35,574 nucleotides of DNA. Origin: a virus. Its lineage: Duplodnaviria > Heunggongvirae > Uroviricota > Caudoviricetes. Every line of letters begins with the position of its first letter. Positions within the stretch are counted from its first letter, which is position 1. The stretch lies in the IMG/VR virus record IMGVR_UViG_2698536477_000007. One strand, 5' to 3'. The position numbers and the translations under genes were made by a program. Below the pieces are notes generated by a model. It saw only the letters and a list, made by a program, of their open reading frames with translations, was not told the origin of the DNA and ran no database searches. Below, one piece after another: positions 16,644 to 33,683 of this stretch.

Positions 16644-17117
16644 ATGAGCGAACCGAGCTTCAGCGTCAGCGGTAAACCGCTGAAATCCACACCGCAGACG
16701 GTGACAAACGGCGAGCCGTTCTGGCCGGACCTTGATCTGGCTGAGCTTCAGGGGTCACGCACGCTTCCGGCTGATTTACCCGACGACACGGCGGCCATGG
16801 CGCTGCTTGCCGCAGTGGCCGAGGTGAACACCACGCTGGCGCCGGTTGTGGCGCACTGGAAGGCGCAGGGGCATGAACGCGCCGCAGACGTACCGGGGGC
16901 CAGGCTGGGCGATGAAACCCAGCTGGTCGCACAGTACAAAAAGGCCGTTTATGCCCGTGCCAAGGCCGATCTTATGGGCGAGTTCGCCACCATTGGTCGC
17001 CGTGAAACCTATCCGGGGCAGGAAAGCGAGGACACACGCGCCACCTTACTGGCTGAAGCCTCGCTGGTCATGCGTAACATGCTGGGGCACAGACGCGCGG
17101 GAGTGCACATCATATGA
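16644..17117 (+). CDS. L: Head completion/stabilisation protein, P2 gpL-like
   Basis: Position after M and size match P2 L; start 16644 (GAGG 6 nt upstream) or 16632. Confidence 0.7.
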   Translation: MSEPSFSVSGKPLKSTPQTVTNGEPFWPDLDLAELQGSRTLPADLPDDTAAMALLAAVAEVNTTLAPVVAHWKAQGHERAADVPGARLGDETQLVAQYKKAVYARAKADLMGEFATIGRRETYPGQESEDTRATLLAEASLVMRNMLGHRRAGVHII

Positions 17118-17587
17118 ACCAGCTGGAAAGCCTGACCGCCTTCATTACCGAAAATCTGCCGTCTGACGCCATGCAGTTCTTCATGAGCAGTCAGGAAGAC
17201 GCGCAACTTATCCGAAGTCAGAAGGCACTGGGTAACGACCAGATCCGCATGGGCGTGATGACGTACACCGGCGTGATTGCATGGGATAACTTCCCGTTCC
17301 GCAAATACTCACCGGGGCTGGTTTACGCGCTGGTCATGGCCTGGCTGGAAGAGCACGCGGACCCGCTGAGGGAGGAATTCCGCCCGGAGGATGTGAACGT
17401 CGACCCGCAGTTTAACGATGAGGACTCGTGCCTTCTCGATATCACGGTGGGACTGGCTGACCCGCTGATCATCCGGGTGCAGAAGGACGGCCCCGTTCCG
17501 TACAGGGGGAAACGCTGGACACTGGTTAACCCTGAAATCTGGACGGCGGAAACCATGGATCTGTTTGTCAGCAGGAGCCGCGAATGA
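17114..17587 (+). CDS. Putative tail completion protein (gpR-like), 157 aa
   Basis: ATGA overlap with L stop; size and position; family assignment tentative. Confidence 0.5.
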   Translation: MNQLESLTAFITENLPSDAMQFFMSSQEDAQLIRSQKALGNDQIRMGVMTYTGVIAWDNFPFRKYSPGLVYALVMAWLEEHADPLREEFRPEDVNVDPQFNDEDSCLLDITVGLADPLIIRVQKDGPVPYRGKRWTLVNPEIWTAETMDLFVSRSRE

Positions 17588-18294
17588 TAAGCGGCCAGCT
17601 GAACCCGCAGCAGCTGGCAGAAGCGCAGGCGATGCTTCAGTCGCTGGATCTGCCCCCGAAAAAACGCCGTCGCCTGTTATGGCGTATTGCCCGGCACGGC
17701 ATTATCGCCGCAGCCAGACGCCATCAGCGCGATCAGACCGCGCCGGACGGCACAGCATGGGCACCCCGGAAACGCGGCAAGGGGAAAATGTTCAGAAAGC
17801 TGCCGCGTCTTCTGGCGGTCCGTGAGATGCCCGGACAGGATGCCGTAAAGGTTTATTTCCGTAACGGCAATCACACCAGTGGCAGGAGCCGCATCAGTGC
17901 CGGTGCCGTGGGCTGGGTTCACCACAACGGCGCAGAAATCCGGGTCAGTGCTGACAGCTTCAGCGGTCAGGACCAGAGCGGGCAGACCGCCACCCGCCGA
18001 CAGGCAAAACGACTGCGGGAGCTGGGCTTTAAGGTACGTCAGAAGGGGCGCTGGCGGAAAGCATCCATGAAATACCTGTTAACGCTTTCGCGGGCGCAGG
18101 CCGGGTTGCTGATCACCGTTATGGAGGATCAGATTATCGCCGGACCACGTCAGCAGAAGGCCAGGACATGGACCATTACCCTTCCGTCGCGCGTCTTTCT
18201 GGGGGTAACAAACGAAGAGTTTTCACACATCCTGGCACGCCAGATGAACGCAATGGGCTACGGCCTGGACGTTGACGCACAGGATATCAGATAA
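17584..18294 (+). CDS. Putative virion morphogenesis / tail completion protein (gpS-like), 236 aa
   Basis: AGGAG ribosome-binding site; overlaps previous stop; basic protein in the tail-completion position. Confidence 0.5.
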   Translation: MISGQLNPQQLAEAQAMLQSLDLPPKKRRRLLWRIARHGIIAAARRHQRDQTAPDGTAWAPRKRGKGKMFRKLPRLLAVREMPGQDAVKVYFRNGNHTSGRSRISAGAVGWVHHNGAEIRVSADSFSGQDQSGQTATRRQAKRLRELGFKVRQKGRWRKASMKYLLTLSRAQAGLLITVMEDQIIAGPRQQKARTWTITLPSRVFLGVTNEEFSHILARQMNAMGYGLDVDAQDIR

Positions 18295-18305
18295 GGAGTC
18301 ACACC

Positions 18306-19451
18306 GTGAGCTGGCCGAATGTAACCGTAAGCCATCAGAACCGTTTCAACGGTGCCACCCGTGAAGTGGAGCGCACGCTGCTTTTTGTGGGCTATGGCAA
18401 AAAGAACACAGGTAACACCCTTTCCGTCTCCCCTGAGACCGACCTGGACGACGTGCTGGGACCGGATGAAAGCCTGCTTAAATCCACGCTTACCGCCGCA
18501 ATCGCCAACGGTGGCCAAAACTGGTTTGCCTATGTTCACGTTCTGTCTGAACCCAAACCCCCGACACCGGAGGGCGGCGACGCTAACGCCGCATGGGTGG
18601 ACGCGGTGAAAAAAGCGCAGACCATTGCTTCTGCCGAAGGCGTGGTGATTGCCATTGACATCACGGCTAAAGATGCCGTTAACCGCGCCACCGAAACCCG
18701 CGCCCTGCTTCAGTCCGCTTATGGCCGTTTTGTCTGGTTCATGCTGTGCGTGGCCGGACCGGGCAGGGATGAGGCATGGGCGGCATACGTCACCCGCATC
18801 AGTGCCATACAGGACGGCGTGGCAGCACCTGGCGTGATGGTGGTTCCCCGCTTATGGGGAAATGAGCCCGGCGTACTGGCGGGCCGTCTCTGTAATCCTT
18901 CTGTCACCGTTGCGGACAGCCCGGCACGCGTGGCAACCGGTGCTCTGGTGGCGATGGGTAACGATGAGATCCCGCAGGACGGCAAGAAACAGCCCCTTGA
19001 GCTGGCCACGCTACGCTCGCTGGAAGGCAAACGCTTCAGCGTGCCCATGTGGTATCACGATTTCGACGGGCTCTACTGGTCAGACGGACGCACCCTTGAT
19101 GTGGAGGGGGGCGATTACCAGGTCATCGAAAACGTGCGCGTGGTGGATAAGGTCTCCCGCCGTGTACGTCTGCGTGCCATTGCCCGCCTTGCGGATCGCG
19201 CGCTCAACAGCACACCGGGCAGCATTGCCGCCAGCCAGACATATTTCAGCCGCACGCTGCGTGAAATGGCGCTCGCCACAGAGATTAACGGCGTACCGTT
19301 CCCCGGCGAGGTTAAACCGCCACAGGACGGGGATATCACCATCGTCTGGACCAGCAGTACACACGTGCAGATTTACATTGTGGTACGCCCCTACGAGAGC
19401 GCAAAAGCCATTGGCGTAAGTATTGAACTCGACACAGCACTGGAGATCTGA
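18306..19451 (+). CDS. Tail sheath protein (non-P2-FI type), 381 aa
   Basis: GTG start with AAGGAG 8 nt upstream; large protein immediately preceding a tube-sized gene. Confidence 0.65.
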   Translation: MSWPNVTVSHQNRFNGATREVERTLLFVGYGKKNTGNTLSVSPETDLDDVLGPDESLLKSTLTAAIANGGQNWFAYVHVLSEPKPPTPEGGDANAAWVDAVKKAQTIASAEGVVIAIDITAKDAVNRATETRALLQSAYGRFVWFMLCVAGPGRDEAWAAYVTRISAIQDGVAAPGVMVVPRLWGNEPGVLAGRLCNPSVTVADSPARVATGALVAMGNDEIPQDGKKQPLELATLRSLEGKRFSVPMWYHDFDGLYWSDGRTLDVEGGDYQVIENVRVVDKVSRRVRLRAIARLADRALNSTPGSIAASQTYFSRTLREMALATEINGVPFPGEVKPPQDGDITIVWTSSTHVQIYIVVRPYESAKAIGVSIELDTALEI

Positions 19452-19452
19452 C

Positions 19453-19914
19453 ATGGCCGGAAATGAACGTATCAGCGGCGGCGCGTTTGATATCAACTAC
19501 GACGGGATCATGATCCACGTGGAAAGCGCCACCGTCACCATCACCGACAACAGCGCCGTGGCACAGACGCGCGGTGTGCCGAACGGCTACACCCGTGGTT
19601 CTGTTTCTGCCGATGTGGAGGTGGAAGTCGACGCGCAGAACTTTAAAAAGTTTGGTGCTGTGGCCCGCTCTGCGGGGTCGTGGCGTGCCATTCCTGAAAA
19701 GGATTTTCTCTTTTATGCCAACAACGGCAGCGAGGAGGAAAAAATCGAGGTATTCGGCTGCGTCCCCATGTTGTCGGACGTGGTGAACATCAGCGCAGGC
19801 GAAGCCGGAAAGACCACGAAAAAAATCAAGTTCATGGTCACAAGCCCGGACTTTATCAACATTGACGGCGTGCCCTACCTGTCAGCCCGTGACACCCGCG
19901 ATCTGAAGGGGTGA
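19453..19914 (+). CDS. Tail tube protein, 153 aa
   Basis: ATG 19453 two nt after sheath stop; size and position typical of a contractile-tail tube protein. Confidence 0.6.
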   Translation: MAGNERISGGAFDINYDGIMIHVESATVTITDNSAVAQTRGVPNGYTRGSVSADVEVEVDAQNFKKFGAVARSAGSWRAIPEKDFLFYANNGSEEEKIEVFGCVPMLSDVVNISAGEAGKTTKKIKFMVTSPDFINIDGVPYLSARDTRDLKG

Positions 19915-19918
19915 TGCC

Positions 19919-20224
19919 ATGCCGGACGGTCAGACTTCACTCCTGGCAAAACTGATTATCATCGGTGCTGCCATCGGGCTGGGGCGTCTCATGGTGAGCC
20001 GCGATCGCATCACAGCCCGTCTGCTTATCGGGCGAATGATTATGGGCTCTGCCGTGGCACCGGTTGCCGCCATTCCGCTGTTTAAATTTCCGGACATGCC
20101 GGAGCTGGTTGTGGTCGGTCTGGCGTGCGCGCTGGGCATTATGGGCAGCGCCTTTATTGAAGAATGCTTTTGCCGTCTGGCAGACCGCTACCTGAAGCAG
20201 AAGGAACGCAGAAATGACCCATAA
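19919..20224 (+). CDS. Putative holin, three transmembrane helices, 101 aa
   Basis: Three hydrophobic segments and a charged C-terminus (RLADRYLKQKERRNDP); in same operon as endolysin and spanins. Confidence 0.5.
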   Translation: MPDGQTSLLAKLIIIGAAIGLGRLMVSRDRITARLLIGRMIMGSAVAPVAAIPLFKFPDMPELVVVGLACALGIMGSAFIEECFCRLADRYLKQKERRNDP

Positions 20225-20966
20225 GCCTTACATTTCGCCTTCCCTGAGCCTGTATCACGCGCAGGCGCATGACGTTCTGCGGATGCTGCCGGAAAACAGT
20301 GTGGACGCGCTCATCACAGACCCGCCATACAGTTCAGGTGCCACACACAAGGCGGGGCGGACATGCCAGGGCAGCCACGCCAAATACATCAACGATGAAG
20401 ATCTTCACCGCTTTGAAGGCTTCGAAGGCGAGAACATGGACGCCCGTTCATGGGAATACTGGACGCATCTGTGGATGACACAGGCATGGCGCACGGTACG
20501 ACCCGGTGGTTACGCCCTGGTCTTCACCGACTGGCGGCAGTTGCCCGCGCTGACGGACGCATTCCAGGCCGCCGGCTTTACCTGGCGGGGGATCGTGGCA
20601 TGGAACAAGGGACGGGCCTCAAGAACACCGCATACCGGTTATTTTCGTCACCAGTGCGAATATGTGGTCTGGGGCAGTAAAGGCGCGCTGGGCAAATCCC
20701 CTTCCGGGCCGTTCGACGGCTGCACCACGCACCACACACGCCCACAGGAGAAACAGCACCCGACAGGTAAACCGGAATCGTTGATGGATGAGCTTGTGCG
20801 CGTGTGTGAACCCGGAGGGCTGATCCTCGATCCGTTTATGGGGTCCGGCACCACGGGCGTGGCCGCCCTTCGCCGGGGCTGCCGTTTTACGGGTATTGAA
20901 CTGAACGCCCACTATTTCAGCGTGGCACAGGCGCGCCTTACGGGGACGGAACAGAGGAGTGACTGA
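20214..20966 (+). CDS. Orphan beta-class DNA amino-methyltransferase (N6-adenine or N4-cytosine)
   Basis: Motif IV DPPY (ALITDPPYSSG) near the N-terminus and motif I LILDPFMGSGTTGVAA near the C-terminus, the beta-class order; no restriction endonuclease gene adjacent. Confidence 0.85.
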   Translation: MTHKPYISPSLSLYHAQAHDVLRMLPENSVDALITDPPYSSGATHKAGRTCQGSHAKYINDEDLHRFEGFEGENMDARSWEYWTHLWMTQAWRTVRPGGYALVFTDWRQLPALTDAFQAAGFTWRGIVAWNKGRASRTPHTGYFRHQCEYVVWGSKGALGKSPSGPFDGCTTHHTRPQEKQHPTGKPESLMDELVRVCEPGGLILDPFMGSGTTGVAALRRGCRFTGIELNAHYFSVAQARLTGTEQRSD

Positions 20967-21304
20967 TGAAACTGAGCGAAAAACAACAGCTGTTTGCCGT
21001 CATGATTGCCGACCTTATTCACTGGGCGCAGGAGCACGGCTATCGCCTGACCTTCGGTGAGGCATACCGCACGCCGGAGCAGGCAGCACTAAATGCGAAA
21101 ACCGGAAAAGGCATCCGCAACAGCCTTCACACCCTGCGCCTCGCGGTGGACTTCAACCTGTTTATTAACGGCGAATACCAGACCGACACCGACGCCTACA
21201 GGCCGCTGGGGGAATACTGGGAATCCATCGGCGGCACATGGGGCGGGCGCTTCAGTCGGGCGGACGGCAATCATTTCAGCCTTGAGCACAACGGGATGAA
21301 ATGA
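20966..21304 (+). CDS. Endolysin, peptidase M15 (Zn-dependent peptidoglycan peptidase) family
   Basis: 112 aa; H-x6-D motif (SLHTLRLAVDF) and downstream DGNHFSLEH histidines as in M15 peptidases; ATGA overlap with methyltransferase stop. Confidence 0.8.
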   Translation: MKLSEKQQLFAVMIADLIHWAQEHGYRLTFGEAYRTPEQAALNAKTGKGIRNSLHTLRLAVDFNLFINGEYQTDTDAYRPLGEYWESIGGTWGGRFSRADGNHFSLEHNGMK

Positions 21305-21687
21305 TGAAACAGCTGGCGGGCTGCCTGGTGCTCCTCTTTGCCGCCATGTGGGCGGGCTGGCTGGCCCATGACTGGCATGACGCCAGGGTGGCGCTTGCCG
21401 AACAGGAAGCCATGGAAGCCACGCGACGTGCGGTGACAGAAGCCGGGCAGCAGTCCGCCCGCATACTGGAAAAACGGCTGGAGGCGTTAAAGGGCAATGA
21501 AATTCACACTGAACGCGTTATTCACACGGAAACCGTCCGCCCGGTATTCCGCAATGTGTGCGCTACTGATGATTACGTCCGGCTGTTCAACGCCCGTGCT
21601 GAAGCCGCTGAGCGTACCCTGGCAGGAAAACCAGCTGACGGAATGCCCGAAGACACTGCCGAGACTGGCAGGCCCGACGGGCGCTGA
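21301..21687 (+). CDS. i-spanin (Rz-like)
   Basis: N-terminal transmembrane helix (LAGCLVLLFAAMWAGWLA) followed by charged coiled-coil-like region; directly downstream of endolysin. Confidence 0.7.
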   Translation: MMKQLAGCLVLLFAAMWAGWLAHDWHDARVALAEQEAMEATRRAVTEAGQQSARILEKRLEALKGNEIHTERVIHTETVRPVFRNVCATDDYVRLFNARAEAAERTLAGKPADGMPEDTAETGRPDGR

Positions 21688-21790
21688 TTTTGATGCGGCA
21701 CTGCGAACCCTCACGAGCCGCTACACCGAATGTGCCGCCAGGCATAACAGCCTGGTGGAAACCATACGAAACACGGAGAAACTGCAATGA
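21497..21790 (+). CDS. o-spanin (Rz1-like outer-membrane lipoprotein), +1 frame overlapping i-spanin
   Basis: Lipobox MITSGC followed by Pro-rich mature region; overlaps 3' end of i-spanin and extends past it; start 21497 or internal 21554. Confidence 0.65.
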   Translation: MKFTLNALFTRKPSARYSAMCALLMITSGCSTPVLKPLSVPWQENQLTECPKTLPRLAGPTGADFDAALRTLTSRYTECAARHNSLVETIRNTEKLQ

Positions 21791-22062
21791 CCACGAAGAA
21801 CACCGGCACCATCATCCTGTCCGTTGCGGGCGTAACCCTGAGCTTTGAACCGAACAAAACGGCATTTAACAACCTCATCAACGAAATCACGATGACCAAC
21901 AAGGTGGCGCCGATGAGCACCTATCTTAACCGCATCGTGACGCCTGCCAGCCGCGACGCACTGGCTGACCTGATTGCGCGTTATCCGGGCTGTGAGATGC
22001 AGATCGTCGAGAAGATTAACGAGGTTTACTCCCCGAAACTGGAGATTGAGTTAAAAAACTGA
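21787..22062 (+). CDS. Tail assembly chaperone (short product, P2 E-like role)
   Basis: 91-aa ORF immediately upstream of tape measure gene, ends at slippery heptamer. Confidence 0.7.
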   Translation: MTTKNTGTIILSVAGVTLSFEPNKTAFNNLINEITMTNKVAPMSTYLNRIVTPASRDALADLIARYPGCEMQIVEKINEVYSPKLEIELKN

Positions 22063-22250
22063 CCGCGCGGGTCGAAAGCATCCGCCGCAATCCCCTTGAG
22101 CAGTATCTGGCATTGCGGCGTCACTACCTCCCCGGAGAGCCGGACGACGAAGAGAGCATCGCCCGGGCCATCTGGCTGGATGAATATTTTGCCCGTACCC
22201 GCGCCAACAAGACCGCTGAAGGTATAGCGATCGCATTTAACGGAAGGTGA
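21787..22250 (+). other. Tail assembly chaperone long form made by programmed -1 ribosomal frameshift at A AAA AAC (22053-22059)
   Basis: Zero-frame codons tta-aaa-aac-tga; -1 frame is open from the slip site for 63 codons to TGA 22248-22250, has no start codon and is closed just upstream by TGA 22047-22049; ends 1 nt before tape measure ATG. Confidence 0.65.
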
Positions 22251-22251
22251 C

Positions 22252-24438
22252 ATGGCCAGCCAGCTGGATTTCATTATCAATCTGACAGACCAGCTTACCC
22301 GCCCGCTGCGGCAGGTTCAGGAATCCGTGACGGGATTCGCCGAACGCTCGCAGGGCGCGTTCGCGCGTATCGGTGTGGGTGTGGCCGGACTGTGGGGTGT
22401 GGCTGAAGGTATCCGCGCCGCAATGGATCCGGCGTGGGAGATGCAGAAGGCGCTGAGCGAGCTTGAGGCCAAAGGCGTCGGAGCGCAGGCGCTGACCGCC
22501 CTCACCACGCAGGCCATGAAACTGGGGACCGCATTCGGTCAGTCTTCCACGGAGATCATCCGTTCCGCATGGCATATTCGCGGCGCACTGGACGGGCTGA
22601 GCGACGGGGATTTACCCCGTGTGACGGCAGCAACCAGTACCCTGGCCGTGGCTGCCCGCGTCAGCAGTGAAGAGGCGAGTACTTACCTTGCCGCCATGGG
22701 TGCCCGTTTCCGCAGTGAGTTTTCTGCCATGGGTGCCGTGGGTTTTGCTGAAGATCTGGCTGGTAAAACCGCGTGGATGGTTCAGCAGTTCGGCGTGGAA
22801 ATGAGCACCATGCAGGAGCTTATTGAGGGCACCAAAAACGCTGGCGCGGATTTTGGCGTCAGCATGGCAGAGCAGTTTGCCATACTGGGCACCCTGTCAC
22901 GGACCATGGGCACCGAGGCATCAGGCATCTATGAGGAGTTCCTGCGCAGTGCCCCCGCTGCCGCACAAAAAATGGGGATGAGTTTCGTCGATGCCACCGG
23001 GAAGATTTTACCCATGGGTGACATCCTCGACCGTCTGCAGGCGAGGTTCGGCAGGAACATTGAGGGTAACGTGGCGGCACAACAGGCGCTGGATGACGCC
23101 TTCGGCAGTGGCGCGGACGTGATTAAAAAACTCTGGGGACAGCAGGAAATGCTTAACCGGAGCATATCAGCGCTGGGGCGTAATGACGGCATGAAGCGTG
23201 CCACGGAAATGGCGGAAGCCATGACCGACCCGTGGGACCGCCTTGTGGCCTCCTTCTACAACATCCGGGCCGCCATCGGTAACGCCCTCTACCCCATTCT
23301 CGCACCACTGGCTGGCCGTTTTGCCGATATCGGCGCGACGTTCGTGCGCTGGCTGAACATGTTCCCGAACATCGCCCGCTGGCTGGGTTACATCACGCTG
23401 ACCATGCTGGCGCTGGGCGCAGCCGGTGCGGTCACGAACATCGTGCTGGGTGTGTTCAGCTTCATCATGGAAGGCCATAAGGCCATCATAAAGGGCGCCA
23501 GGGCCGCCTGGAGTCTGTACACGCTTGCACTCACAAAAGTACGCAGCGTCATCATTGCCACCAGTCTTGCCGCGCGTCTGGCGGGCGTGTCGTTTCTGAC
23601 CATGAGCGCCCCGGTCCTCCTGGTTGCCGCCGCCATCGCCGCTCTGGTGGTGGTGGCCATTAAGTTCTGGCAGCCCGTCAAAGCCTTTATTCGCGGCTTT
23701 ATTGATGGTTTTACCGGCGCACTGGACGCCATGAGCCCGGTGACTGCCGCGTTCGGCGACATTGCCCGTGCGCTGACCCCGGTATGGCAGGGCATAAAAA
23801 CCCTGTTCGGTGCCTTCTCCGATCTGTTTGCACCGGTACAGCTGACCACGGGACAGATGAACAGCGTCACCCGTGCCGGAGAAACATGCGGTCGCGTGGT
23901 GGCCGCAGCGGTAAGCCTGATATCCCCCGCGCTGGAGGTGGTTATCAGCGTGATCAGAACCCTGGTCGACATCTTCGCCATCGTCATCAGAGGGTGGCAG
24001 GACGTGGTGGCTGCATTTGACCCGACTGCCCCGGTCGAATCCTTCCGGAAAATGGCGGGGATCATCGGTAACGTCTTCGGGGACTTATGGAACGTCATTA
24101 AAAACTCGTTTAACCGGACGTGGAACTGGCTTGCGGAAAAGCTGAACAAAATCCCTGGTATCAGTATCGACATGAAGCCCACGGAGCAGGTGAACACCAT
24201 GACGCGGGGCGCAACAGGCAGCACCGTACCTCCGCAGATTGCAGAAACCGCCGTCCCGACACTGGCAGGCAACCGCATCAGCGCAGAGCTGCCACCCGGA
24301 GGCATACGCAACCAGATACGCACGGACACCTCAACCCGTATCGACAACAGCCGGACGTTCGGCAATCTGACAATCAACACGCAGAACCCGATGACGCCGG
24401 GGCAACTGGATGAATGGACGGAGCTTTACGCGGGATGA
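22252..24438 (+). CDS. Tail tape measure protein
   Basis: 728 aa, Ala/Gly-rich with hydrophobic central segment; follows the frameshifted chaperone pair. Confidence 0.85.
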   Translation: MASQLDFIINLTDQLTRPLRQVQESVTGFAERSQGAFARIGVGVAGLWGVAEGIRAAMDPAWEMQKALSELEAKGVGAQALTALTTQAMKLGTAFGQSSTEIIRSAWHIRGALDGLSDGDLPRVTAATSTLAVAARVSSEEASTYLAAMGARFRSEFSAMGAVGFAEDLAGKTAWMVQQFGVEMSTMQELIEGTKNAGADFGVSMAEQFAILGTLSRTMGTEASGIYEEFLRSAPAAAQKMGMSFVDATGKILPMGDILDRLQARFGRNIEGNVAAQQALDDAFGSGADVIKKLWGQQEMLNRSISALGRNDGMKRATEMAEAMTDPWDRLVASFYNIRAAIGNALYPILAPLAGRFADIGATFVRWLNMFPNIARWLGYITLTMLALGAAGAVTNIVLGVFSFIMEGHKAIIKGARAAWSLYTLALTKVRSVIIATSLAARLAGVSFLTMSAPVLLVAAAIAALVVVAIKFWQPVKAFIRGFIDGFTGALDAMSPVTAAFGDIARALTPVWQGIKTLFGAFSDLFAPVQLTTGQMNSVTRAGETCGRVVAAAVSLISPALEVVISVIRTLVDIFAIVIRGWQDVVAAFDPTAPVESFRKMAGIIGNVFGDLWNVIKNSFNRTWNWLAEKLNKIPGISIDMKPTEQVNTMTRGATGSTVPPQIAETAVPTLAGNRISAELPPGGIRNQIRTDTSTRIDNSRTFGNLTINTQNPMTPGQLDEWTELYAG

Positions 24439-24785
24439 ACACGCCATCGCTTTACATCGACCTGCTTATCACTGACGGCAGTTTTACGCTGAACAGCGGC
24501 AACGAGCCACAGCGATGTGATAACCGGGTCAGCATCGGCCAGGACGTGGTGCACAGCATTATCGAAAGCGGGATCGCCGCCCTGCTTATCGGCGAACGCA
24601 GCCCGACTCTGCGCAGCGACATCATTACCCGGCTTATCCTCCTGGTTGAGGATGATGAACGGCTGGTTCCGGGGACGGTGTTCATTAACGAAGAGGCACC
24701 GGGCAGGCTGCATGTGACGGCAGAGACACAGGATTTTGGACGCATAAACACCAGGGTGAACTATGAAAGGGAAACCGGACGTTGA
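24435..24785 (+). CDS. Baseplate wedge protein, gpW/gp25-like
   Basis: About 116 aa; ATGA overlap with tape measure stop; ...SIIESGIAALLIGERSPTLRSDI... resembles the gp25-like GER motif. Confidence 0.55.
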   Translation: MNTPSLYIDLLITDGSFTLNSGNEPQRCDNRVSIGQDVVHSIIESGIAALLIGERSPTLRSDIITRLILLVEDDERLVPGTVFINEEAPGRLHVTAETQDFGRINTRVNYERETGR

Positions 24786-25947
24786 TTTTAATCAGGTATT
24801 CCGTGAAAGCGGTATGCCGGAAACAGAAGAAGAGATCGCCACCCTCTTTCATGAGGATGTACAGAAAACCGGACTCATCACCAACACCTCGCCCATGAGT
24901 CCCTTCTGGCGGCTCATTCTGACCATTGTCATACGACCCGTTCAGTGGCTGCGTGATGCACTGGTTGACGTTGTGCTGCCCGGTATGTTTGTCGCCACGG
25001 CTGACCGGTCACTTCTTCTGCTTCATGCGCACGACGTCAACATCACCCCAAAACCGGCCAGTAAGGCCCGTGGCGTGATCTGGTTTGCCAAAACCAGGGC
25101 AAATGATGACGTCCTCATCCCCGAAGGGACCATCGTCCAGACCGCCAGAATCAACGGCGTGATACACAGCATGGCCGTCACGGAGGAAACGCTTATCAGC
25201 AGCGGTAAAAGCGGCGCATCCGTTCCCGTGGAAGCCACCACCGAAGGCAGCGGGCACAACCTCGCGCCGGGGTACTTCCGTATCCTTCCCGTTGCCATTC
25301 CCGGCATTGCATCCGTGGTGAACCGGGAGGACTGGCTGACCGTACCGGGTGCCGATGAGGAAAGCGACGACGAACTGCGCGACAGAATACGCAACCAGTT
25401 TAACCTCGTGAGCAGTTACCACACGGACGCCGTCTACCGGGGACTTATTGCCAGCGTGGCGGGCCTGAGCATCGACCGGATCTACTTTCAGCACGACGCC
25501 CCGAGAGGACCGGGAACGGCCAACGCCTACCTGTTACTGGACAGCGGCGAGGCCTCTGCCCCTTTCATTGAAGCAGTCAACCGCTACATCAACGAAGAGG
25601 GGCACCACGGACACGGGGATGATTTGCAGTGTTTCGCCATGCCGGAGACGCGTCACCGTCTGGAGGTCACCGTATACATCAGAAGTTCAACCACCCTGCC
25701 ACCGGACGGCGCGGAAGGGCTGAAACAGGATATCGACGACCTGATACGCTGCGCTTTCAGGGAGAACGCCCGCTTTAACGTGAAAAAAGTCTGGCCCTAT
25801 TCGCGCTTTTCGTTTTCCACGCTGGGCAAGGAAATTCATCAGACCTTCCCGATGGTGGCTTCGGTTCAGTTTTCACTGGAAGACATCATCAGCGATCTGG
25901 CCGTGCCACGGCTCGAATCCCTGACAGTGGAGGTGGTCATTGAATAA
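24763..25947 (+). CDS. Baseplate J-family protein
   Basis: 394 aa in wedge position upstream of I-like and fibre genes. Confidence 0.75.
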   Translation: MKGKPDVDFNQVFRESGMPETEEEIATLFHEDVQKTGLITNTSPMSPFWRLILTIVIRPVQWLRDALVDVVLPGMFVATADRSLLLLHAHDVNITPKPASKARGVIWFAKTRANDDVLIPEGTIVQTARINGVIHSMAVTEETLISSGKSGASVPVEATTEGSGHNLAPGYFRILPVAIPGIASVVNREDWLTVPGADEESDDELRDRIRNQFNLVSSYHTDAVYRGLIASVAGLSIDRIYFQHDAPRGPGTANAYLLLDSGEASAPFIEAVNRYINEEGHHGHGDDLQCFAMPETRHRLEVTVYIRSSTTLPPDGAEGLKQDIDDLIRCAFRENARFNVKKVWPYSRFSFSTLGKEIHQTFPMVASVQFSLEDIISDLAVPRLESLTVEVVIE

Positions 25948-26488
25948 CTTTTTGCAGCGGCTTCGCTCGCTGAAACTGCCCTCCTGGATGGACAGGGGGG
26001 AACCCGACAAACTGCTGCGGGCCGCGCAGGCTTTCTGGTCCCGCGTATGGGAATGGATCACCTGGCCCGTGCGCCAGTTTGACCCCATGACATGTGCAGA
26101 GCCTGTACTTGATTTGCTGGCATGGGAGCGGGACATCACCCGCTTTAAAGGGGAACCCACGGAGATCTACCGCCGCCGCATCAGTTACGCCTTCATCAAT
26201 GCACAGGAGGCTGGCGAGGTGGCGGGCTTTATCGCCATTTTTGAACGGCTGGGCATCGGCTACGTGGAGTTACTCGAGCGCCAGCCCGGCGTGGACTGGG
26301 ATGTGATCCTGGTGCGGGTGACAGACAGCCAGATAGCCGACAACAGCGATCTTCTTCTGGAGATCATCCGCAAATATGGCAGGACATGCCGCCGTTACCG
26401 TTTTGAGGTGGAAACCCTTAACCCCTTCATCATCCATTATGGCGCATACGAAGGGGAGTATATCTGCTGGACGGCCAGGGCAGAGTGA
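25940..26488 (+). CDS. Tail protein I-like (baseplate), probable TTG start
   Basis: 182-aa ORF; GGAGG 6 nt upstream of TTG 25940; alternative ATG at 25988. Confidence 0.65.
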   Translation: MNNFLQRLRSLKLPSWMDRGEPDKLLRAAQAFWSRVWEWITWPVRQFDPMTCAEPVLDLLAWERDITRFKGEPTEIYRRRISYAFINAQEAGEVAGFIAIFERLGIGYVELLERQPGVDWDVILVRVTDSQIADNSDLLLEIIRKYGRTCRRYRFEVETLNPFIIHYGAYEGEYICWTARAE

Positions 26489-26510
26489 ATGACTGAAGGA
26501 GTATGACTTT

Positions 26511-28571
26511 ATGGCGAAATCTGTAATTACCAGCGCCTTTATCCGGCTCAAGGCACAGCAGGCGGTGGAAGGCACCCCCGTTGTGCTGGATGAGTTTATT
26601 TTTGCAAACGTCCCGGACCTCAACCCGGAAACGCCGGTATCCCCCGACGAAATCCTGCCGCCTGAAGATCAGATTGTTCACCGCCAGGCCGTTGGTAAAA
26701 CCGGCGTGGTGAATGAGAATGCCGTGGTTTATTCGGTCACCCTGGGGGCAGAGCTGGGTGATTTTGAATTTAACTGGGTGGGACTGGTCAGCAAAGCAAC
26801 CAGCACGCTGGCCATGATTGTTCATGCACCCACACAGAAAAAAATCAGAACCCACAACGGTAACGAAGGTAATGTGCTGGTTCGTTCCATGCTCATGGAG
26901 TACAGCGGTGCGAAAGAAGCCACTGGTATCACCACCCCGGCGCAGACCTGGCAGATAGACTTCACGGCACGCCTGGCATCCATGGACGAACGCCAGCGCC
27001 GCGAAAACGTCGATATCTACGGGAAGGCAACTTTTTTTGATGACGGGTGGCTGGTTAAGAAAGGCGAAACCTGGACAGTCAACAAAGGGGTGGGTTACGT
27101 GGAGGGGCTACGCGCAGAGCTGACCGAAGACACACCAATGGTCACGCCCACCTCCCCGTCCCGTATCTGGCTGAATGTGTGGTGGACCGGCACGCTCACC
27201 AGTGAATGGGCGACAGAGCACGAAATCATAACAGCCGACCCGGACGTTACGGAAGAGCGTTTACGGAAAACGTATCCGAGGGACGGCATTCAGCAATATT
27301 TTTGTGCCATCGCTGAAATTGATGAAGACGGCAACGTGACTGACCTCCGCCCCAGAGGAACCCCGGAAGAGCGCCGCAGTCTGGACGCCCTGAAAAAACA
27401 CGAGAGATCACGTAATCACCCGGACGCAACGCTGAAAGAAAAGGGCTTCACACAGTTAAGCAGCGCCACCACCAGTACATCAGAAACACAGGCAGCCACG
27501 CCAAAAGCGATAAAGATCGCCATGGACAACGCCGATGGTCGGCTTGCGAAAAACCGCAATGGTGAGGACATCCCCAACAAGGAATTGTTTATTATCAACA
27601 TCGGTGCTCCCCGGGTTTATGATGCTGACGGATACGTGGGTAAAGCAGGGCAACGCTGGACAACAGAACAGTTCGTGGAATGGCTGAATGAGCGCGGTGC
27701 ATTCAGAACGGGGAGCTGGGTATTAAGGGCCAATATTTCACTGTCACAGCACAGCGTGCTTACTGACACGGGGTATGGCGATATCTGCCTGGGTGGCTGC
27801 CTGATTGAAGTGTTTGGCGAACTCATCGGTGGAATAGTCAGGATCACCACAGGTCTGGAAGATTCAGATCCGGCCACAAAAGAACACCGGGCACAATTTA
27901 CCGGGGTGATACTGGATCGGGGAAGAAAAACCACCTGGTACCGCACTTACACGGATAAAAACAAACCCACACCACAGGACATCGGCGCACTGCCTGCAAC
28001 TGAGGCATTACCGGCTGGTATTCCTTTTCCGTGGCCGTCAGACACCCCGCCTGACGGTTACGCCATCATGGTGGGGCAGACATTCGATAAAGCGCAATAC
28101 CCCCTGCTGGCAAAAGCCTGTCCGGACGGTCGCATCCCGGATATGCGCGGCTGGACAATCAAGGGGAAACCCGCCAGCGGTCGTGCGGTATTGTCACAGG
28201 AGCAGGACGGTATCAAATCCCACACCCACGGGGGGAGCGTCTCAAACACTAACCTTGGCACGAAAACGACCTCATCCTTCAATTACGGCACAAAAACAAC
28301 AGGAAGCGCGGGTTCAGGCTCTGCAAGCATAGCACTGAGAACCGCCACCGCGTCACCGGAAGGCAGCGGTGACTGGACCGCATACGGGCCGGGTTCAGGG
28401 GCAAGCCTGACGGTTAACTTTCCGGCACACACGCACCCTGTAGGCATTGGCGAACACGCCCACACGATCGCACTGGGTTCACATGGTCACGGCCTGACCA
28501 TTAACCCCACCGGTAATGCCGAAAACACCGTTAAAAACATCGCATTTAACTACATCGTGAGGCTTGCATAA
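26511..28571 (+). CDS. H: Tail fibre protein, P2 gpH family N-terminus with His-rich C-terminal tip
   Basis: ...[35 protein letters not shown]... nearly matches the conserved P2 H segment ([35 protein letters not shown]); C-terminal [23 protein letters not shown]. Confidence 0.88.
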
Positions 28572-29167
28572 TGACCTTTAAAATGAGCGAACACCCGCAG
28601 ACAATTAAAATCTACAACCTGTCAGCCGGAACAAATGAATTTATCGGCGAAGGCGATGCATGGATCCCTCCGCATACCGGACTGCCTGCGCACTCAACGG
28701 ACATTGCCCCGCCTGACATTCCTGAAGGACACGTGGCTATCTTTGATGAGGATGAAAACACCTGGCACCTCATGGAAGATCACCGGGGTAAAACCGTCTG
28801 GCGTCTGGAGTCGGGAAGCGCCTTACTGATTACTGAGCCGGGCCCGTTACCGGAAAACGTGACCATAATAAAACCGGACGGGGAGTTCTGCCGGTGGGAT
28901 GGTTCATCATGGGTTAAGGATGAAGCAGCAGAACAGGCTTACCGGGTGAGCGAGGCGGAGAACAAAAAACGGGAATTAATACAGGAAGCAACAAATACAA
29001 TAAACATCCTCCAGGATGCCGTGGATTTAAATATGGCGACCGACGATGAAAGCGCCCTGCTTCCCCTGTGGAAAAAATACCGGGTATTACTGAACCGGAC
29101 AGACACGGGCAACGCGCCGGATATTGTCTGGCCTGAATCTCCTTCGCCGGATCATCACGCAGGCTGA
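28571..29167 (+). CDS. Tail fibre assembly protein (Tfa/gpG-like)
   Basis: Start overlaps fibre stop; C-terminal ...[27 protein letters not shown]... is typical of fibre assembly chaperones. Confidence 0.75.
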
Positions 29168-29178
29168 CCGGAGGCACC

Positions 29179-29904
29179 ATGACGTGGACAAGAAAAACAA
29201 TCAGCGTCAGCGCTGACATGCCCCCGCTGAGCTGTTCCGTCATCCCCGTCACACCGTGGACTTACGGGCTGGGACGATATGAAGAATCGGGGGTATATTT
29301 AAGCCCTCCGAACGCCATAAACTGGCTGGCCGGGAAAATGGCCGGAAGCCGTGCATCCGGCGACGTGACCATTATCATGATTGCCGAAAACACCCACGAT
29401 CTTTTTATACAGTCAATGGCGGCACTGACCGCCGTTCTGCCCGTGCCGGTATTCACGCAGGCACAGCGCATGGCACAGGCTGCCGCCAGTCTGAGCACTG
29501 ACAAAATGCAAATCCCGATCACCACCGACACCCTGCCCGCACCTGTGCATCTTTCCGTTGCCACAATGCGCAACGCAGTCAGCGCCGCCCGTGCAGCACA
29601 GGCCAGGCAGCTGGCAGCACAACGCCCGGATGCCGCAGGGCTTCGCCGCCAGATAAGCCGCTTTATCAGCAGACGGGCTGGCGCACTTGCCGGACTGGAA
29701 GAGGGGATCAGAACACTGGCAGAACAGAAGGCGCAGGCCTGGGTATTTCAGTACCGGGGGTATCACCGCGCCGCAGCGGCGGCCATGGTGAAGGATATCC
29801 CGGCACCGACCGCCGTACATACTGTGGCCGCACTCCTGGCGGCAGACTCATTAACTGAACTGGGGAAAATGATCCATGAGCCAGACCGCACTGCTCGCCC
29901 TTGA
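29179..29904 (+). CDS. Hypothetical protein, 241 aa (tail-associated or cargo)
   Basis: GGAGG ribosome-binding site; no motif recognised. Confidence 0.5.
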   Translation: MTWTRKTISVSADMPPLSCSVIPVTPWTYGLGRYEESGVYLSPPNAINWLAGKMAGSRASGDVTIIMIAENTHDLFIQSMAALTAVLPVPVFTQAQRMAQAAASLSTDKMQIPITTDTLPAPVHLSVATMRNAVSAARAAQARQLAAQRPDAAGLRRQISRFISRRAGALAGLEEGIRTLAEQKAQAWVFQYRGYHRAAAAAMVKDIPAPTAVHTVAALLAADSLTELGKMIHEPDRTARP

Positions 29905-30418
29905 TGGTGAGGGTATTTTCATGCAGAACATGGTTATTTCGCCCTCGATGCAGTTCCAGGAAAAGGACCAGTCCGGTCAGACATCGAGCACCGCGAACGC
30001 CGAGCAGGGCATCAAGGCCAAAGAGCTTCGCGTAACCGGGATGATCACCTTTGACAATGAGCGGGCCCTTCAGCGCATTTTCCAGCTGGCCTCTGCCACC
30101 ACCGGGGACGGTGCCCTGAAAGTTTACCGTATCGCAAACGCCACCGCTGCCGCCATTAACTTTCGTGAAGGGACATTCTCCGGGCAGATAGACGCACAGC
30201 AGCAGACCGACCGCCTCGCCTGGCAGGTCAGCTTCACATTACGCGAAAGACGAAGCGTACCGGAAAAACGCCAGGCACGCGCCACCCCCGGCAGCAGCCG
30301 TAAACAGACACCGCAGACGCCCGGCGCAAAAGGCGGGACCGTGGCCGACGAAACACCGGAGAAAATGACCTGGTTCGAAGAAAAGGTCCTCAAACCCGTC
30401 AATGATGCGCTGGAGTAA
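29876..30418 (+). CDS. Hypothetical protein, 180 aa (tail-associated or cargo)
   Basis: ORF overlapping previous by 29 nt; no motif recognised. Confidence 0.5.
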   Translation: MSQTALLALDGEGIFMQNMVISPSMQFQEKDQSGQTSSTANAEQGIKAKELRVTGMITFDNERALQRIFQLASATTGDGALKVYRIANATAAAINFREGTFSGQIDAQQQTDRLAWQVSFTLRERRSVPEKRQARATPGSSRKQTPQTPGAKGGTVADETPEKMTWFEEKVLKPVNDALE

Positions 30419-30420
30419 CC

Positions 30421-32094
30421 ATGAACCCCACTAAACGTCTGTTACTGGGTAACGACACCATTCAGCTGGTCAGTTGTTCCGTCATGCTTGAGCTGAACGC
30501 GTGCGGACGCGGATTTATCACGGCCAGAACAGAGCAGAACTACACCGGGCGCCCCGTTCGTCTCGATATCGGATACGGAAACGACCTGGTGCGCTGGTTT
30601 ACCGGATACGTTGAACGCAGCCAGCCCGCTGAAAACGGCTCGGTGCGGCTTCTGATTCGTGAAATGGCGGGGATCCTTGATCACCCCTTCCCCTGTTCAT
30701 TTCAGCACCCGACAATGCGCACGGTCACACAGTGGCTGAGTGAGGCCAGCGGGCTGGAAATCATCCTGCCGGACAACGCGGCTTACACTGACAGACCCGT
30801 TCCGCATTTCACACACAGCGGCACGGGCTACGAACTGCTGGCCAGTCTGGGGCGTATTTTCTCCGTACCGGATTACATCTGGCATCCGTTACCGGACGGC
30901 GGCATTATGGCCGCTGCTGCCGCGCAGGGGATGTTTTCCGGTCGCCCCGTCACCATCCCGCACGAGTTCAGCCAGGCATCAACGGGCGGGCACAGTATGA
31001 CCCTCCCGATGATTCAGACGCTGCGACCGGGTGTGGAGGTGAACGGTCAGCGCCTGACGATGGTCATGCTGGAAGATGACAACATGACCATCACGTGGAC
31101 ACCGCGCAATAAAGCCACCGGCGCTCCCCTCCAGAAGTCCCCTTTCCGTCGCCAGGCTGAAAAGGCCTTCCCTGAGCTGGCATCAGGGCTTCACCTGCCC
31201 AAACTGGCACGTGTTGAGGCACCGACCGAAGCCGTCAGCGCGGGCAATATTGCCGACCCGTTCAGACCCCGCTACGCGGTGAATCTCCAGCTGCTTGACG
31301 AGAACGGCAACCCGGCAGCAGATACGCCCGTCTATAACGCCGTTCCCCTCCCCGTTCCCATGGCGGGCAGTGAGTCCGGCATGTTCCAGTTCCCGCCACC
31401 CGGAACCCTGGTGGAAGTGGGATTTGTGGAAGGCCGGGCGGATAAGCCCTTCATCCGCCAGATAATGGCAGAGGGCCACAATCTGCCCGACGTGAAGCCG
31501 GGCGAGCAGTTGCAGCAACAGCGCGACGGCGTATCGCAGCGCGTGACGGTCGCCGGAGACTGGGAGCGCCAGACAGACCAGCGGATACAGGAGACATCAC
31601 GCGAGCGCGTGGTGAGTGCAGACGAGGAAAAGCGGAGCCTGACCAGCCGGGAGACCACCATACAGGCAACCGACACAACCACCGTCCTGGGCGTATCCAC
31701 GCTTCAGGCTGGCGCGGTCACCCATATCACTGAAGAGAACTACAGCATCAGCACGGGCGGGCACATGATGGTGGTTGCCGGTACCTGTGAGCGCGACGTG
31801 GAAGGCGACACCCAGGACACCGTGGGCGGCAGCCTTACCGAAAAGATTAAGGGCGTCCGTCACAGTATTGCGCTGGCGCAGAAGCTGGTTGGCGATACGG
31901 TGAAGCTGGGAAACGAGGGCATTAATGTACTGACCATGCTGACGGACCTTGCCGATGTGGTGGAAGAGCTGGCCGATATTACAGCATCACATACCCACCC
32001 AAAAACGGGCACGTCTCCGCAGGCCGCACAGTTCAGCCAGGTCGCTCAGGAGTGCCGCCAGCTTAAAAATAAATATTCACCAATAATCGAATAA
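30421..32094 (+). CDS. Baseplate hub/spike protein (gpD-like N-terminus with gp5/VgrG-type fold segment)
   Basis: 557 aa; ...FPPPGTLVEVGFVEGRADKPFI... resembles the conserved gpV/VgrG spike motif; last gene of tail operon. Confidence 0.6.
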   Translation: MNPTKRLLLGNDTIQLVSCSVMLELNACGRGFITARTEQNYTGRPVRLDIGYGNDLVRWFTGYVERSQPAENGSVRLLIREMAGILDHPFPCSFQHPTMRTVTQWLSEASGLEIILPDNAAYTDRPVPHFTHSGTGYELLASLGRIFSVPDYIWHPLPDGGIMAAAAAQGMFSGRPVTIPHEFSQASTGGHSMTLPMIQTLRPGVEVNGQRLTMVMLEDDNMTITWTPRNKATGAPLQKSPFRRQAEKAFPELASGLHLPKLARVEAPTEAVSAGNIADPFRPRYAVNLQLLDENGNPAADTPVYNAVPLPVPMAGSESGMFQFPPPGTLVEVGFVEGRADKPFIRQIMAEGHNLPDVKPGEQLQQQRDGVSQRVTVAGDWERQTDQRIQETSRERVVSADEEKRSLTSRETTIQATDTTTVLGVSTLQAGAVTHITEENYSISTGGHMMVVAGTCERDVEGDTQDTVGGSLTEKIKGVRHSIALAQKLVGDTVKLGNEGINVLTMLTDLADVVEELADITASHTHPKTGTSPQAAQFSQVAQECRQLKNKYSPIIE

Positions 32095-32108
32095 TCATTC
32101 ACTTTAAC

Positions 32109-32133
32109 AGGCCGCGCAATGTGGCCTTTTTTA
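32109..32133 (+). terminator. Rho-independent terminator of the late tail operon
   Basis: Stem GGCCGC (32110-32115) / GTGGCC (32121-32126) with 5-nt loop, followed by TTTTTT (32127-32132). Confidence 0.55.
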
Positions 32134-32219
32134 TTCCCGGACGATAAAAAATATTCATCAACGGACATCACCCACCACGAAAAACCGTCCGCAGCAGAAA
32201 AAAAGATGGACGAAACGCC

Positions 32220-32790
32220 CCACGTAATCCCCGCGTAAAACGTCACGTAACGCCACGTAACGAAGAGATAACCCCGCCGGCCCGATTCGATCCCCTGACA
32301 TCAGAAAACGATTTCTGCGCCCCAGAATCGCCGCAAATGGCCGGAAATTTTCGGGGGCGACGTAACGCGTAAAGTGACGTAATCGGCGCTACCCCGCACA
32401 CGCCTCCGGTATTTGTGTACGATAAATTTTGCAAATCGAAATGGGTGCAAAACACCCCGCCAGGGCGCGCCATTACTGAGGTTTTCCCTTCTGAATGGTT
32501 TTGCACTTTGTGCAAGGTTTTGCAAAAGTGTGCAAAAACTCCGGCTTTCTGAGGATCCCGAAAAAATTTAATGCACTGAATAACAAGAGATTTTTAAAAT
32601 TACGTCACGATCGAAGATCTGAAAAAGGATCCGACGACGAAAACGAAAAAATCAGGAAAGCCAGAACTGGCGCGGCCTGGCGGGGAGTGGCAGCAAAAAT
32701 CACTTTTGCACACTTTTGCACAACTGCTCCGAAAAAGGATGGCGAAGGGGAAGGAAAAACAGCCACGTCATCCGTTGCACGTAACGGACG
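32220..32790. repeat. Non-coding region dense in short repeated motifs (CACGTAACG-type and TTTTGCAC/GTGCAAAA-type)
   Basis: ACGTAA at 32222, 32245, 32255, 32360, 32377, 32780 plus inverted TTACGT at 32600; TTTTGCA/TGCAAAA clusters at 32427-32450, 32498-32540, 32701-32723; no credible ORF. Confidence 0.5.
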
Positions 32791-32955
32791 TAAAAGGTAA
32801 ATTACGCGCGGGTGCCTTTCGGCTGACGGCTGGAAGGAATACCTGAAGGCCGGATGTGAAAAGGCCCCGAGTCAACTAACGTTAACCCGAGGCCCTGACA
32901 CTTCCTACCTGACAAGTGGAAGGTTAGCGCCTCCCTGTAAAAGGAGTCAAGCGCT

Positions 32956-33096
32956 ATGCCGCAAAAAACGATCATAGTGAGCATTTTATGCATAACTATT
33001 TTGATGATTGTCTGGATGATACACACGTCACCGTGTGAGTTCAGGCTTAACATCATGTGGTCAGAATTTGCGGCGTTCTTGCAGTGTAAACAGTAA
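32956..33096 (+). CDS. hok: Hok-family type I toxin peptide, copy 1 (46 aa)
   Basis: MPQKTIIVSILCITILMIVWMIHTSPCEFRLNIMWSEFAAFLQCKQ: single transmembrane helix, conserved LCIT, C-E and E-x-AAF spacing of Hok/Gef; AAGGAG ribosome-binding site 10 nt upstream. Confidence 0.75.
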   Translation: MPQKTIIVSILCITILMIVWMIHTSPCEFRLNIMWSEFAAFLQCKQ

Positions 33097-33185
33097 GAAA
33101 CCGCAGCGGGGGTGAAAGCCCCCGCTATCCGGTTGCCGGGTTCGGCTGATATGGCACCCTTTTGGGTTAGCGTACTGACTTCATT

Positions 33186-33210
33186 GCCCGCAATATGCGG
33201 GCTTTTTTTT
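33186..33210 (+). terminator. Rho-independent terminator at end of hok unit 1
   Basis: GCCCGCA-ATA-TGCGGGC followed by T8. Confidence 0.6.
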
Positions 33211-33427
33211 GCCGTCTCCCCTCAACAGCTTCAATACTGAGCATTGCGCACACAAAGGGAAATCAGTAAATTACATGCGGGTGCCTTTCGGCTGACGACT
33301 GGAAGGAATACCTGAAGGCCGGATGTGGAAAGGCCCCGGAGTCAACTTTAATGTTAACCCGAGGCCCTGACCATCTACCCTAAGCAAGTGGAAGGTTAGC
33401 GCCTCCCTGTAAAAGGAGTCAAGCGCT

Positions 33428-33568
33428 ATGCCGCAAAAAACGATCATAGTGAGCATTTTATGCATAACTATTTTGATGATTGTCTGGATGATACACAACT
33501 CACCGTGTGAGTTCAGGCTTAACATCATGTGGTCAGAATTTGCGGCGTTCTTGCAGTGTAAACAGTAA
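33428..33568 (+). CDS. hok: Hok-family type I toxin peptide, copy 2 (46 aa)
   Basis: Identical to copy 1 except T24N (MIHNSPCEF). Confidence 0.75.
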   Translation: MPQKTIIVSILCITILMIVWMIHNSPCEFRLNIMWSEFAAFLQCKQ

Positions 33569-33658
33569 GAAACCGCAGCGGGGGTGAAAGCCCCCCGCTA
33601 TCCGGTTGCCGGGTTCGGCTGATATGGCACCCTTTTGGGTTAGCGTACTGACTTCATT

Positions 33659-33683
33659 GCCCGCAATATGCGGGCTTTTTTTT
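33659..33683 (+). terminator. Rho-independent terminator at end of hok unit 2
   Basis: Same hairpin and T8 run as unit 1. Confidence 0.6.

Follow-up and report, generated by a model that had tools for sequence, protein, structure and literature searches.

In a prophage of Escherichia coli, a gene for a DNA methyltransferase (MTase) sits between the holin and endolysin genes, where its lineage appears to have added it to a lysis cassette that is otherwise arranged as in related phages. The prophage is complete, HP1-like rather than P2-like, and belongs to the family Peduoviridae. We analyzed it as a single stretch of 35,574 nucleotides (IMG/VR record IMGVR_UViG_2698536477_000007), which we call the window and to which coordinates refer unless stated otherwise; the lysis cassette occupies positions 19919-21790. 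We consider it probable (roughly 0.65) that the gene encodes a late-expressed orphan N6-adenine MTase that would methylate progeny DNA before packaging and thereby protect it from restriction, with a presumed anti-restriction benefit to the phage.

The MTase gene (20214-20966; 753 bp, 250 amino acids) is tightly fitted to both of its neighbors, and like them it lies on the plus strand. Its ATG (20214) falls 11 nt inside the holin gene (19919-20224), and a Shine-Dalgarno-like AAGGA (20201-20205, plus strand), read from the sequence within the holin coding region, precedes that ATG by 8 nt. At the other end, the last base of the MTase stop codon TGA (20964-20966) is shared with the ATG of the endolysin gene (20966-21304), giving TGATG, while the AGGAG Shine-Dalgarno sequence of the endolysin (20955-20959, plus strand, also read from the sequence) is contained in the 3'-terminal part of the MTase coding region. 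These overlapping starts and stops had been claimed in an earlier interpretation of this DNA made without database searches (the sequence-only reading), and they can be read directly from the sequence. This arrangement would allow translation of the MTase to be coupled to that of the holin.

In relatives, the genes flanking the MTase are immediate neighbors. Holin and endolysin genes abut or overlap directly in Salmonella phage SI7 and in prophages of Citrobacter, Buttiauxella, and Rahnella; in the SI7 group, which is without the MTase, the overlap is 14 nt. Holin was also directly next to endolysin in 18 other E. coli genomes with an SI7-like prophage. Using the tube protein, we retrieved additional relatives from IMG/VR, and in 39 of the 41 that were informative the gap between holin and endolysin was -4 to +17 nt, with nothing in between. 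The 753-bp gene was thus confined to the window's own lineage among the relatives compared, and on this comparison the MTase is the sole extra gene in the cassette. A search by megablast recovered the cassette at 97-100% identity in 12 of 5,426 complete E. coli genomes, all of them with the holin-MTase-endolysin form.

One member of the lineage has lost most of the gene. In IMG/VR record IMGVR_UViG_2579778804_000007 (our locus L110, positions 4229-4330, corresponding to window 20214-20966), the tube protein is 99% identical to that of the window, and the holin and chaperone proteins are 100% identical. Yet L110 keeps only nucleotides 1-52 of the MTase gene (window 20214-20265; codons 1-17), followed by AGGAG and the start of the endolysin. 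The deletion spans ~690 nt and is flanked by CAGG/GAGG microhomology. Because the remaining stub aligns with the N-termini of MTase family members, we regard L110 as a deletion derivative and not as an empty site; the MTase gene is therefore dispensable. Judged from these alignments, L110 is a natural knockout of the MTase, and the gene is accessory.

Multiple lines of evidence place the protein among the beta-class MTases, as the sequence-only reading had proposed. A match to PF01555 spans residues 30-239 and scores far above the gathering threshold (97.9 bits versus a cutoff of 26.7), the protein also matches phrog_67, and RefSeq labels the gene in an identical prophage as a DNA-methyltransferase. 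The motifs follow the beta-class order, with DPPY (motif IV) at residues 36-39, HPTGKP at 182-187, and DPFMGSGTT at 206-214 (FMGSG, motif I, 208-212). Sequence matches in the PDB included CcrM, M.BceJIV, and M1.HpyAVI, and the alignment with CcrM covers both DPPY and FMGSG. We obtained an AlphaFold model with a predicted local distance difference test (pLDDT) score of 81 and a predicted template modeling (pTM) score of 0.81. When this model was compared against the PDB with Foldseek, the top 38 matches were all beta-class MTases, including CcrM, M.BceJIV, bdelloid N4CMT, M1.HpyAVI, MboIIA, RsrI, and PvuII. With the solved N6-adenine enzymes CcrM, M.BceJIV, and M1.HpyAVI, the window MTase shares the Rossmann-like MTase fold (Foldseek E values of 1e-16 to 1e-18; TM score of ~0.7), the motif order, DPPY, and FxGxG. 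However, it is only 22-26% identical to these enzymes and is missing the C-terminal domain of CcrM; their target specificity is not transferable. The presence of DPPY rather than SPPY points to adenine as the target base, and the substrate is presumably DNA. A literature search on the RefSeq protein accession, on HP1-like E. coli prophages, and on an MTase next to a holin returned nothing relevant, either on the target motif or by way of an earlier description.

The enzyme appears to be intact and to stand alone. No degeneration of the catalytic motifs, a possibility raised by the sequence-only reading, was seen: DPPY, H182..K186-P187, and D206-P-F-M-G-S211 were invariant in an alignment of 22 homologues with 50-72% identity. 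In addition, all seven E. coli alleles encode 250 amino acids without stop codons and with unchanged catalytic and S-adenosylmethionine (SAM)-binding motifs. We detected no restriction enzyme gene among the uncharacterized open reading frames (ORFs) of the window with Pfam or PADLOC, and RefSeq annotates none in the identical prophage or its flanking regions, in agreement with the earlier claim that the MTase has no restriction partner. Because none of these sources yielded a restriction enzyme, the MTase is, as far as annotation goes, an orphan within this element.

The surroundings of the gene argue for late expression. A consensus-based scan of the region from 19.9 to 21.8 kb revealed neither a sigma-70-like promoter nor a terminator-like site on the plus strand. 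Plus-strand genes are packed from 16644 to 32094 with gaps of no more than 22 nt, except for two larger gaps; these are taken up by the o-spanin gene and by the frameshift extension of the chaperone gene described below. Given the tight packing, the codon overlaps, and the lack of a promoter or terminator of its own, the MTase would share its transcript with the structural and lysis genes of the late region. Late expression, which the sequence-only reading had assumed, is therefore the best inference, and expression is likely restricted to late lytic growth. It follows that a role for the MTase in the uninduced lysogen is unlikely. An Ogr/Delta-like zinc-finger late activator is annotated by RefSeq in the identical prophage. 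A search for P2-type late-promoter dyads (TGT-N12-ACA) was uninformative, with 8 matches versus 7.3 expected by chance, and no perfect dyad was found in the intergenic regions at 13.6 kb and 16.5 kb.

Late-only expression fits with precedents from E. coli. M.EcoGI and M.EcoGII of strain O104:H4 are likewise adenine MTases of the beta class, prophage encoded and orphan (PMC5778455, PMC7544214). They are silent in lysogens, and the authors of the M.EcoGII study considered it likely that the enzyme is switched on at induction (PMC5778455). These enzymes are 349 amino acids long and nonspecific, in contrast to the 250-amino-acid window MTase, and were compared with it by description only. A close relationship between M.EcoGII and the window MTase is unsupported, given the difference in length and a comparison by description only.

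Whether the MTase should be called a moron depends on which attributes of morons are considered. According to the definition of Hendrix, a moron is an extra gene that separates two genes found side by side in related phages. With respect to position, the label given in the sequence-only reading holds, as the MTase lies between genes that are contiguous in relatives. In other respects it does not, since the MTase has neither a promoter and terminator of its own nor a deviant base composition. Its GC content is 0.604 (0.689 at third codon positions, GC3), while flanking genes range from 0.52 to 0.615 (GC3, 0.64 to 0.74). From its composition, the MTase does not appear to be a foreign, recent arrival.

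We propose the following sequence of events. A 753-bp MTase gene would have been fitted precisely into the ancestral junction of holin and endolysin in one lineage, such that its start came to lie behind AAGGA within the holin gene, its stop overlapped the endolysin start, and its 3' end supplied the AGGAG of the endolysin. The gene would be transcribed only as part of a late operon of the Ogr/Delta type and translated alongside the holin. The enzyme would then be made late in the lytic cycle, at the time of phage DNA replication and packaging. As a result, progeny genomes would be methylated at an adenine-containing motif and would arrive in the next host already protected from restriction of the same specificity.

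The MTase belongs to a large family (~5,900 proteins at E<1e-20), with matches in 1,595 phage records, and its members occupy diverse positions. Among 49 IMG/VR homologue loci that we sampled, a Com-like regulator was the commonest upstream neighbor, and contexts included Com, primase, terminase, portal, and sheath genes. Families of holins and endolysins were not among the 25 most frequent neighbor families at these loci, and on this basis we rejected a general functional link between the MTase family and lysis. The family is best seen as a promiscuous accessory gene for which the lysis cassette is a rare site and not the rule.

The closest homologues (73-64% identity) come from P2-like E. 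coli phage Chuche, an HP1-like prophage of Yersinia kristensenii, and a Salmonella prophage; in these, the gene follows a zinc-ribbon Com-like regulator and is located close to the integrase gene or to the end of the prophage. At three loci with such close homologues (64-73% identity; L009:3856-4789, L014:1742-2702, and L002:5796-6738) the Com-like gene is found 5' of the MTase, and in L009 and L002 the MTase gene overlaps it. A more distant homologue (48% identity) from Stenotrophomonas phage Smp131 also follows a translational regulator. This layout resembles com-mom of phage Mu and suggests that an ordinary adenine MTase may be under translational control in P2-like and HP1-like prophages. 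These Com-MTase modules share with the window the beta-class family, the kind of phage, and the orphan state, but they differ in that the window MTase is coupled to the holin instead. Neither the ORF listing nor the RefSeq annotation contains a Com ORF in the window prophage; the gene 5' of its MTase is the holin. At its right end, the window carries three hok/gef units where the Com-MTase relatives have hok-com-MTase; in the related Yersinia prophage (L009), for example, hok, com, and the MTase occupy the position of the window's hok repeats.

Other homologues are found in still different contexts. The gene lies between DUF1804 and the large terminase in an E. coli Mu-like prophage (56% identity) and 5' of a Nu1-type small terminase in a Salmonella prophage with lambda-type terminase genes (56%). 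In Bordetella phage BPP-1 (50%), it is part of the early cro-primase operon, which rules out the idea that this family is always placed among late genes. A second holin-MTase-endolysin arrangement occurs in Mu/BcepMu-like prophages of Salmonella enterica (60% identity; protein P0011; L011:3807-5286 in GCA_015005415.1, and also L012, L013, and L024). There, an MTase of the same family is wedged, with 4-nt overlaps at both ends, between a holin (PF04971) and a lysozyme (PF00959). Because the phage type (marked by GemA, Mor, and DUF1804) is unrelated and both the holin and the endolysin belong to other families than those of the window, the Salmonella arrangement is an independent insertion. The Salmonella cassette had no megablast match in the phage collection.

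Three observations weigh against a late, protective methylase. Selection on the gene is weaker than on its neighbors, with a ratio of nonsynonymous to synonymous substitution rates (dN/dS) of 0.43 across the seven alleles versus 0.04 for the tube and 0.07 for the endolysin; at least one loss of the gene has also occurred. Not every homologue is a late gene, as BPP-1 shows. Finally, our scans were consensus based and would be compatible with a weak internal promoter or with low-level expression in the lysogen.

The first of these observations bears on the alternative that survives best, although we think it improbable. Under this alternative, the MTase would be a nearly neutral passenger that was captured by illegitimate recombination, was tolerated since the coupling to the endolysin was kept, and is slowly decaying without significant benefit to the phage. 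In its favor are a dN/dS far above that of neighboring genes, the rarity of the arrangement in complete E. coli genomes (12 of 5,426), and the loss of ~690 nt in L110, where the ribosome-binding site of the endolysin was kept. Against this, the ratio is still below 1, none of the seven alleles is truncated or has lost a catalytic or SAM-binding motif, and the GC and GC3 of the gene match those of surrounding phage genes, suggesting long residence and not recent arrival. Moreover, the family is widespread in phages. The MTase is under genuine though relaxed constraint, which is what one would expect of an accessory gene.

The remaining two alternatives are less probable still. In one, the MTase would be an epigenetic regulator that is expressed from the repressed prophage, methylates the host chromosome, and alters host expression, a form of lysogenic conversion. 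This role, one of two that the sequence-only reading had put forward, has parallels in orphan phage MTases that affect the host, for example, a prophage MTase of Staphylococcus aureus (bioRxiv 10.1101/2024.04.17.589803), and it could accommodate the intact gene in 12 E. coli genomes. It is nevertheless the less likely of the two, since there is no promoter-like site of the MTase's own either 5' of the gene or inside it, and the gene lies in the middle of a late operon of ~15 kb with codon overlaps on both sides. In addition, close homologues either follow a Com-type translational regulator or occupy other late sites, and lysogens do not express M.EcoGI or M.EcoGII, which are analogous enzymes (PMC5778455).

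The other alternative assigns the MTase a role internal to the phage. Methylation of its own DNA could tune packaging, replication, or late expression, as Dam does for pac cleavage in phage P1 and for mom in phage Mu, or the ORF itself could adjust the ratio of holin to endolysin and thus the timing of lysis. Translational coupling to both lysis genes would suit such a role, as would the recurrence of the same MTase family between an unrelated holin and lysozyme in the Salmonella Mu-like prophages. Yet nearly all relatives do without the MTase, the deletion in L110 returns the ribosome-binding site and the start of the endolysin to a direct arrangement, and families of holins and endolysins fall outside the top 25 neighbors at the 49 IMG/VR loci.

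A related idea concerns the site itself. Placement between holin and endolysin may be adaptive if synthesis of the MTase were tied to that of the holin in both amount and time, so that a potentially harmful or loosely specific adenine methylase would be confined to the last minutes before lysis. The holin would then take the role of Com, and two unrelated lineages, the HP1-like prophages of E. coli and the Mu-like prophages of Salmonella, would have converged on the same solution. We regard this as improbable and offer it as speculation. A late methylase that protects progeny DNA remains the reading that we favor.

While the MTase appears to be an addition, the lysis cassette around it does not. 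The sequence-only reading took P2 as its reference and concluded that the lysis genes had been inserted into the tail operon. It described P2 correctly, as in that phage Y, K, and lysABC lie between X and R, with FII directly before E. However, P2 is the wrong comparison for a prophage that is collinear with HP1. In the record of Haemophilus phage HP1 (genus Hpunavirus, Peduoviridae), the order is orf23 (sheath), orf24 (tube), hol, lys, orf25 (spanin), orf26, and orf27, which is the same succession of sheath, tube, holin, endolysin, Rz-like spanin, chaperone, and tape measure that we observed in the window. Collinearity extends over the whole genome, including int, cI/cox, rep, the portal and terminase genes on the opposite strand, and the ORF34/ORF35 baseplate genes. 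The window has further hallmarks of an HP1-type late layout, namely, lysis genes between tube and chaperone, a DUF2586 sheath, an HP1 Orf24 tube, and an HP1 ORF34 baseplate protein. There are differences as well. By tblastn (E 1e-3), neither the holin nor the endolysin of HP1 matched its counterpart in the window, hol and lys have nothing between them, and the MTase of HP1 (orf13) is a different protein, encoded at the end of the early operon.

The closest sequenced phages are Salmonella phages SI7, SW3, and SW5 (genus Irrigatiovirus, Peduoviridae), together with enterobacterial prophages. In SI7, the genes run in the order sheath, tube, holin, M15 endolysin, spanin, chaperone, and tape measure, and the Citrobacter, Buttiauxella, and Rahnella prophages have the same cassette order. 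Protein identity between the SI7 group and the window is 66% for the sheath, 85% for the tube, 69% for the holin, 86% for the M15 endolysin, ~60% for the spanins, and 73% for the chaperone. The order tube-holin-endolysin-spanin-chaperone is common to HP1, SI7, and ~60 related prophages. Because HP1, SI7, and close relatives share it, we conclude that the cassette was not inserted into the tail operon; on the evidence of gene order, its site between tube and chaperone is the ancestral one for HP1-type phages. Synteny therefore supports one half of the original proposal, that the MTase is extra relative to related phages, and contradicts the other, as the cassette itself is in its usual place.

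The individual genes of the cassette were identified much as the sequence-only reading had named them: the ORFs for the holin, MTase, M15 endolysin, and overlapping spanins are present and supported by Pfam or PHROG families. All lie on the plus strand. The module is preceded by genes for the tail sheath (18306-19451; DUF2586, phrog_907) and the tail tube (19453-19914; HP1 Orf24 family, PF10772, E 2e-51; phrog_1182), with the tube gene forming its upstream boundary. The 101-amino-acid holin (PF04550, E 1e-19; phrog_175 holin, E 6e-31) has, by inspection, three hydrophobic segments and a charged C-terminus, resembling class I. The endolysin is a 112-amino-acid M15-family metallopeptidase (PF13539, 40.7 bits versus a cutoff of 25; phrog_1768 and phrog_465). 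It is followed by a Rz-like i-spanin with an N-terminal hydrophobic segment (21301-21687; phrog_1152, E 3e-31) and by a Rz1/LysC-like lipoprotein, the o-spanin (21497-21790; phrog_2425, E 8e-22; phrog_456). The o-spanin gene begins within the i-spanin gene in another frame and ends past it, an overlapped architecture of the P2 LysB/LysC type. Its start is likely the internal ATG at 21554, after which a lipobox-like LMITSGC is encoded, while curated LysC models score under their cutoffs on this protein. RefSeq records of the identical prophage do not include the o-spanin gene and show a 99-nt gap there.

Overlaps of 4 nt join the endolysin to the i-spanin gene and the o-spanin to the gene for the tail assembly chaperone (plus strand, 21787-22062; Phage_TAC_10, PF10963, E 9e-31), which is followed by the tape measure gene (plus strand, 22252-24438). 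The 3' end of the chaperone gene reads GAG TTA AAA AAC TGA, with a slippery sequence TTAAAAAAC at 22050-22058. The open stretch of the -1 frame (22050-22250) closes 1 nt before the ATG of the tape measure, and the chaperone probably has a -1 frameshift extension to 22250. RefSeq calls positions 22113-22250 a separate gene for a 45-amino-acid DUF6890 protein. By analogy with E/E+E' of P2, this stretch is more likely to be the frameshift extension of the chaperone than a separate gene.

Beyond the late genes, the prophage includes an integrase at the left edge of the window, a cI-like helix-turn-helix repressor and a Cox-like protein, a GPA-type replication protein, and an HP1 ORF34-type baseplate protein, all with Pfam matches; in the ORF listing, the minus strand has ORFs of a size to encode portal and terminase. 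At the right edge of the window is the host gene serS, and in strain JNEC-KY172 the prophage is located between dmsA and serS. E. coli O22:H8 strain 154 is another lysogen. GC content is 0.55-0.62 in the late and replication genes (5500-32000), whereas it is 0.41-0.50 in the early and immunity region (1-5000), in a stretch at ~9.5-10.5 kb, and in the hok repeat region (32000-35000). For comparison, the GC content of E. coli serS is 0.53. It is probable that the backbone of the phage evolved in a higher-GC host. An "ash family protein" at 5508-5768 is an incomplete pseudogene according to RefSeq in the identical prophage, and in the window it falls within a long GTG-initiated ORF (5517-6548) with a weak Phage_ASH match. 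At the right end of the prophage (32797-34082), we found a 473-bp tandem repeat with 2.7 copies and 94% matches; each repeat unit holds a Hok/Gef toxin gene as annotated by RefSeq, for three in total. No Rfam family reached threshold in this repeat region.

Orphan methylases of phages are a common and well-known counter to restriction, and the MTase described here adds one more without introducing a new class of system. What it offers is a clean natural history, in which an ancestral junction would have received a precise insertion with coupling kept on both sides, followed by a later deletion flanked by microhomology. Our comparison also corrects the reference frame for this prophage, which is of the HP1 type and not the P2 type. 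As a candidate late methylase, the enzyme could explain extra N6-methyladenine (m6A) motifs in induced E. coli lysogens. More generally, that one MTase family alternates between Com-controlled positions and the lysis cassette provides a small hint as to when during infection phages may produce their methylases.

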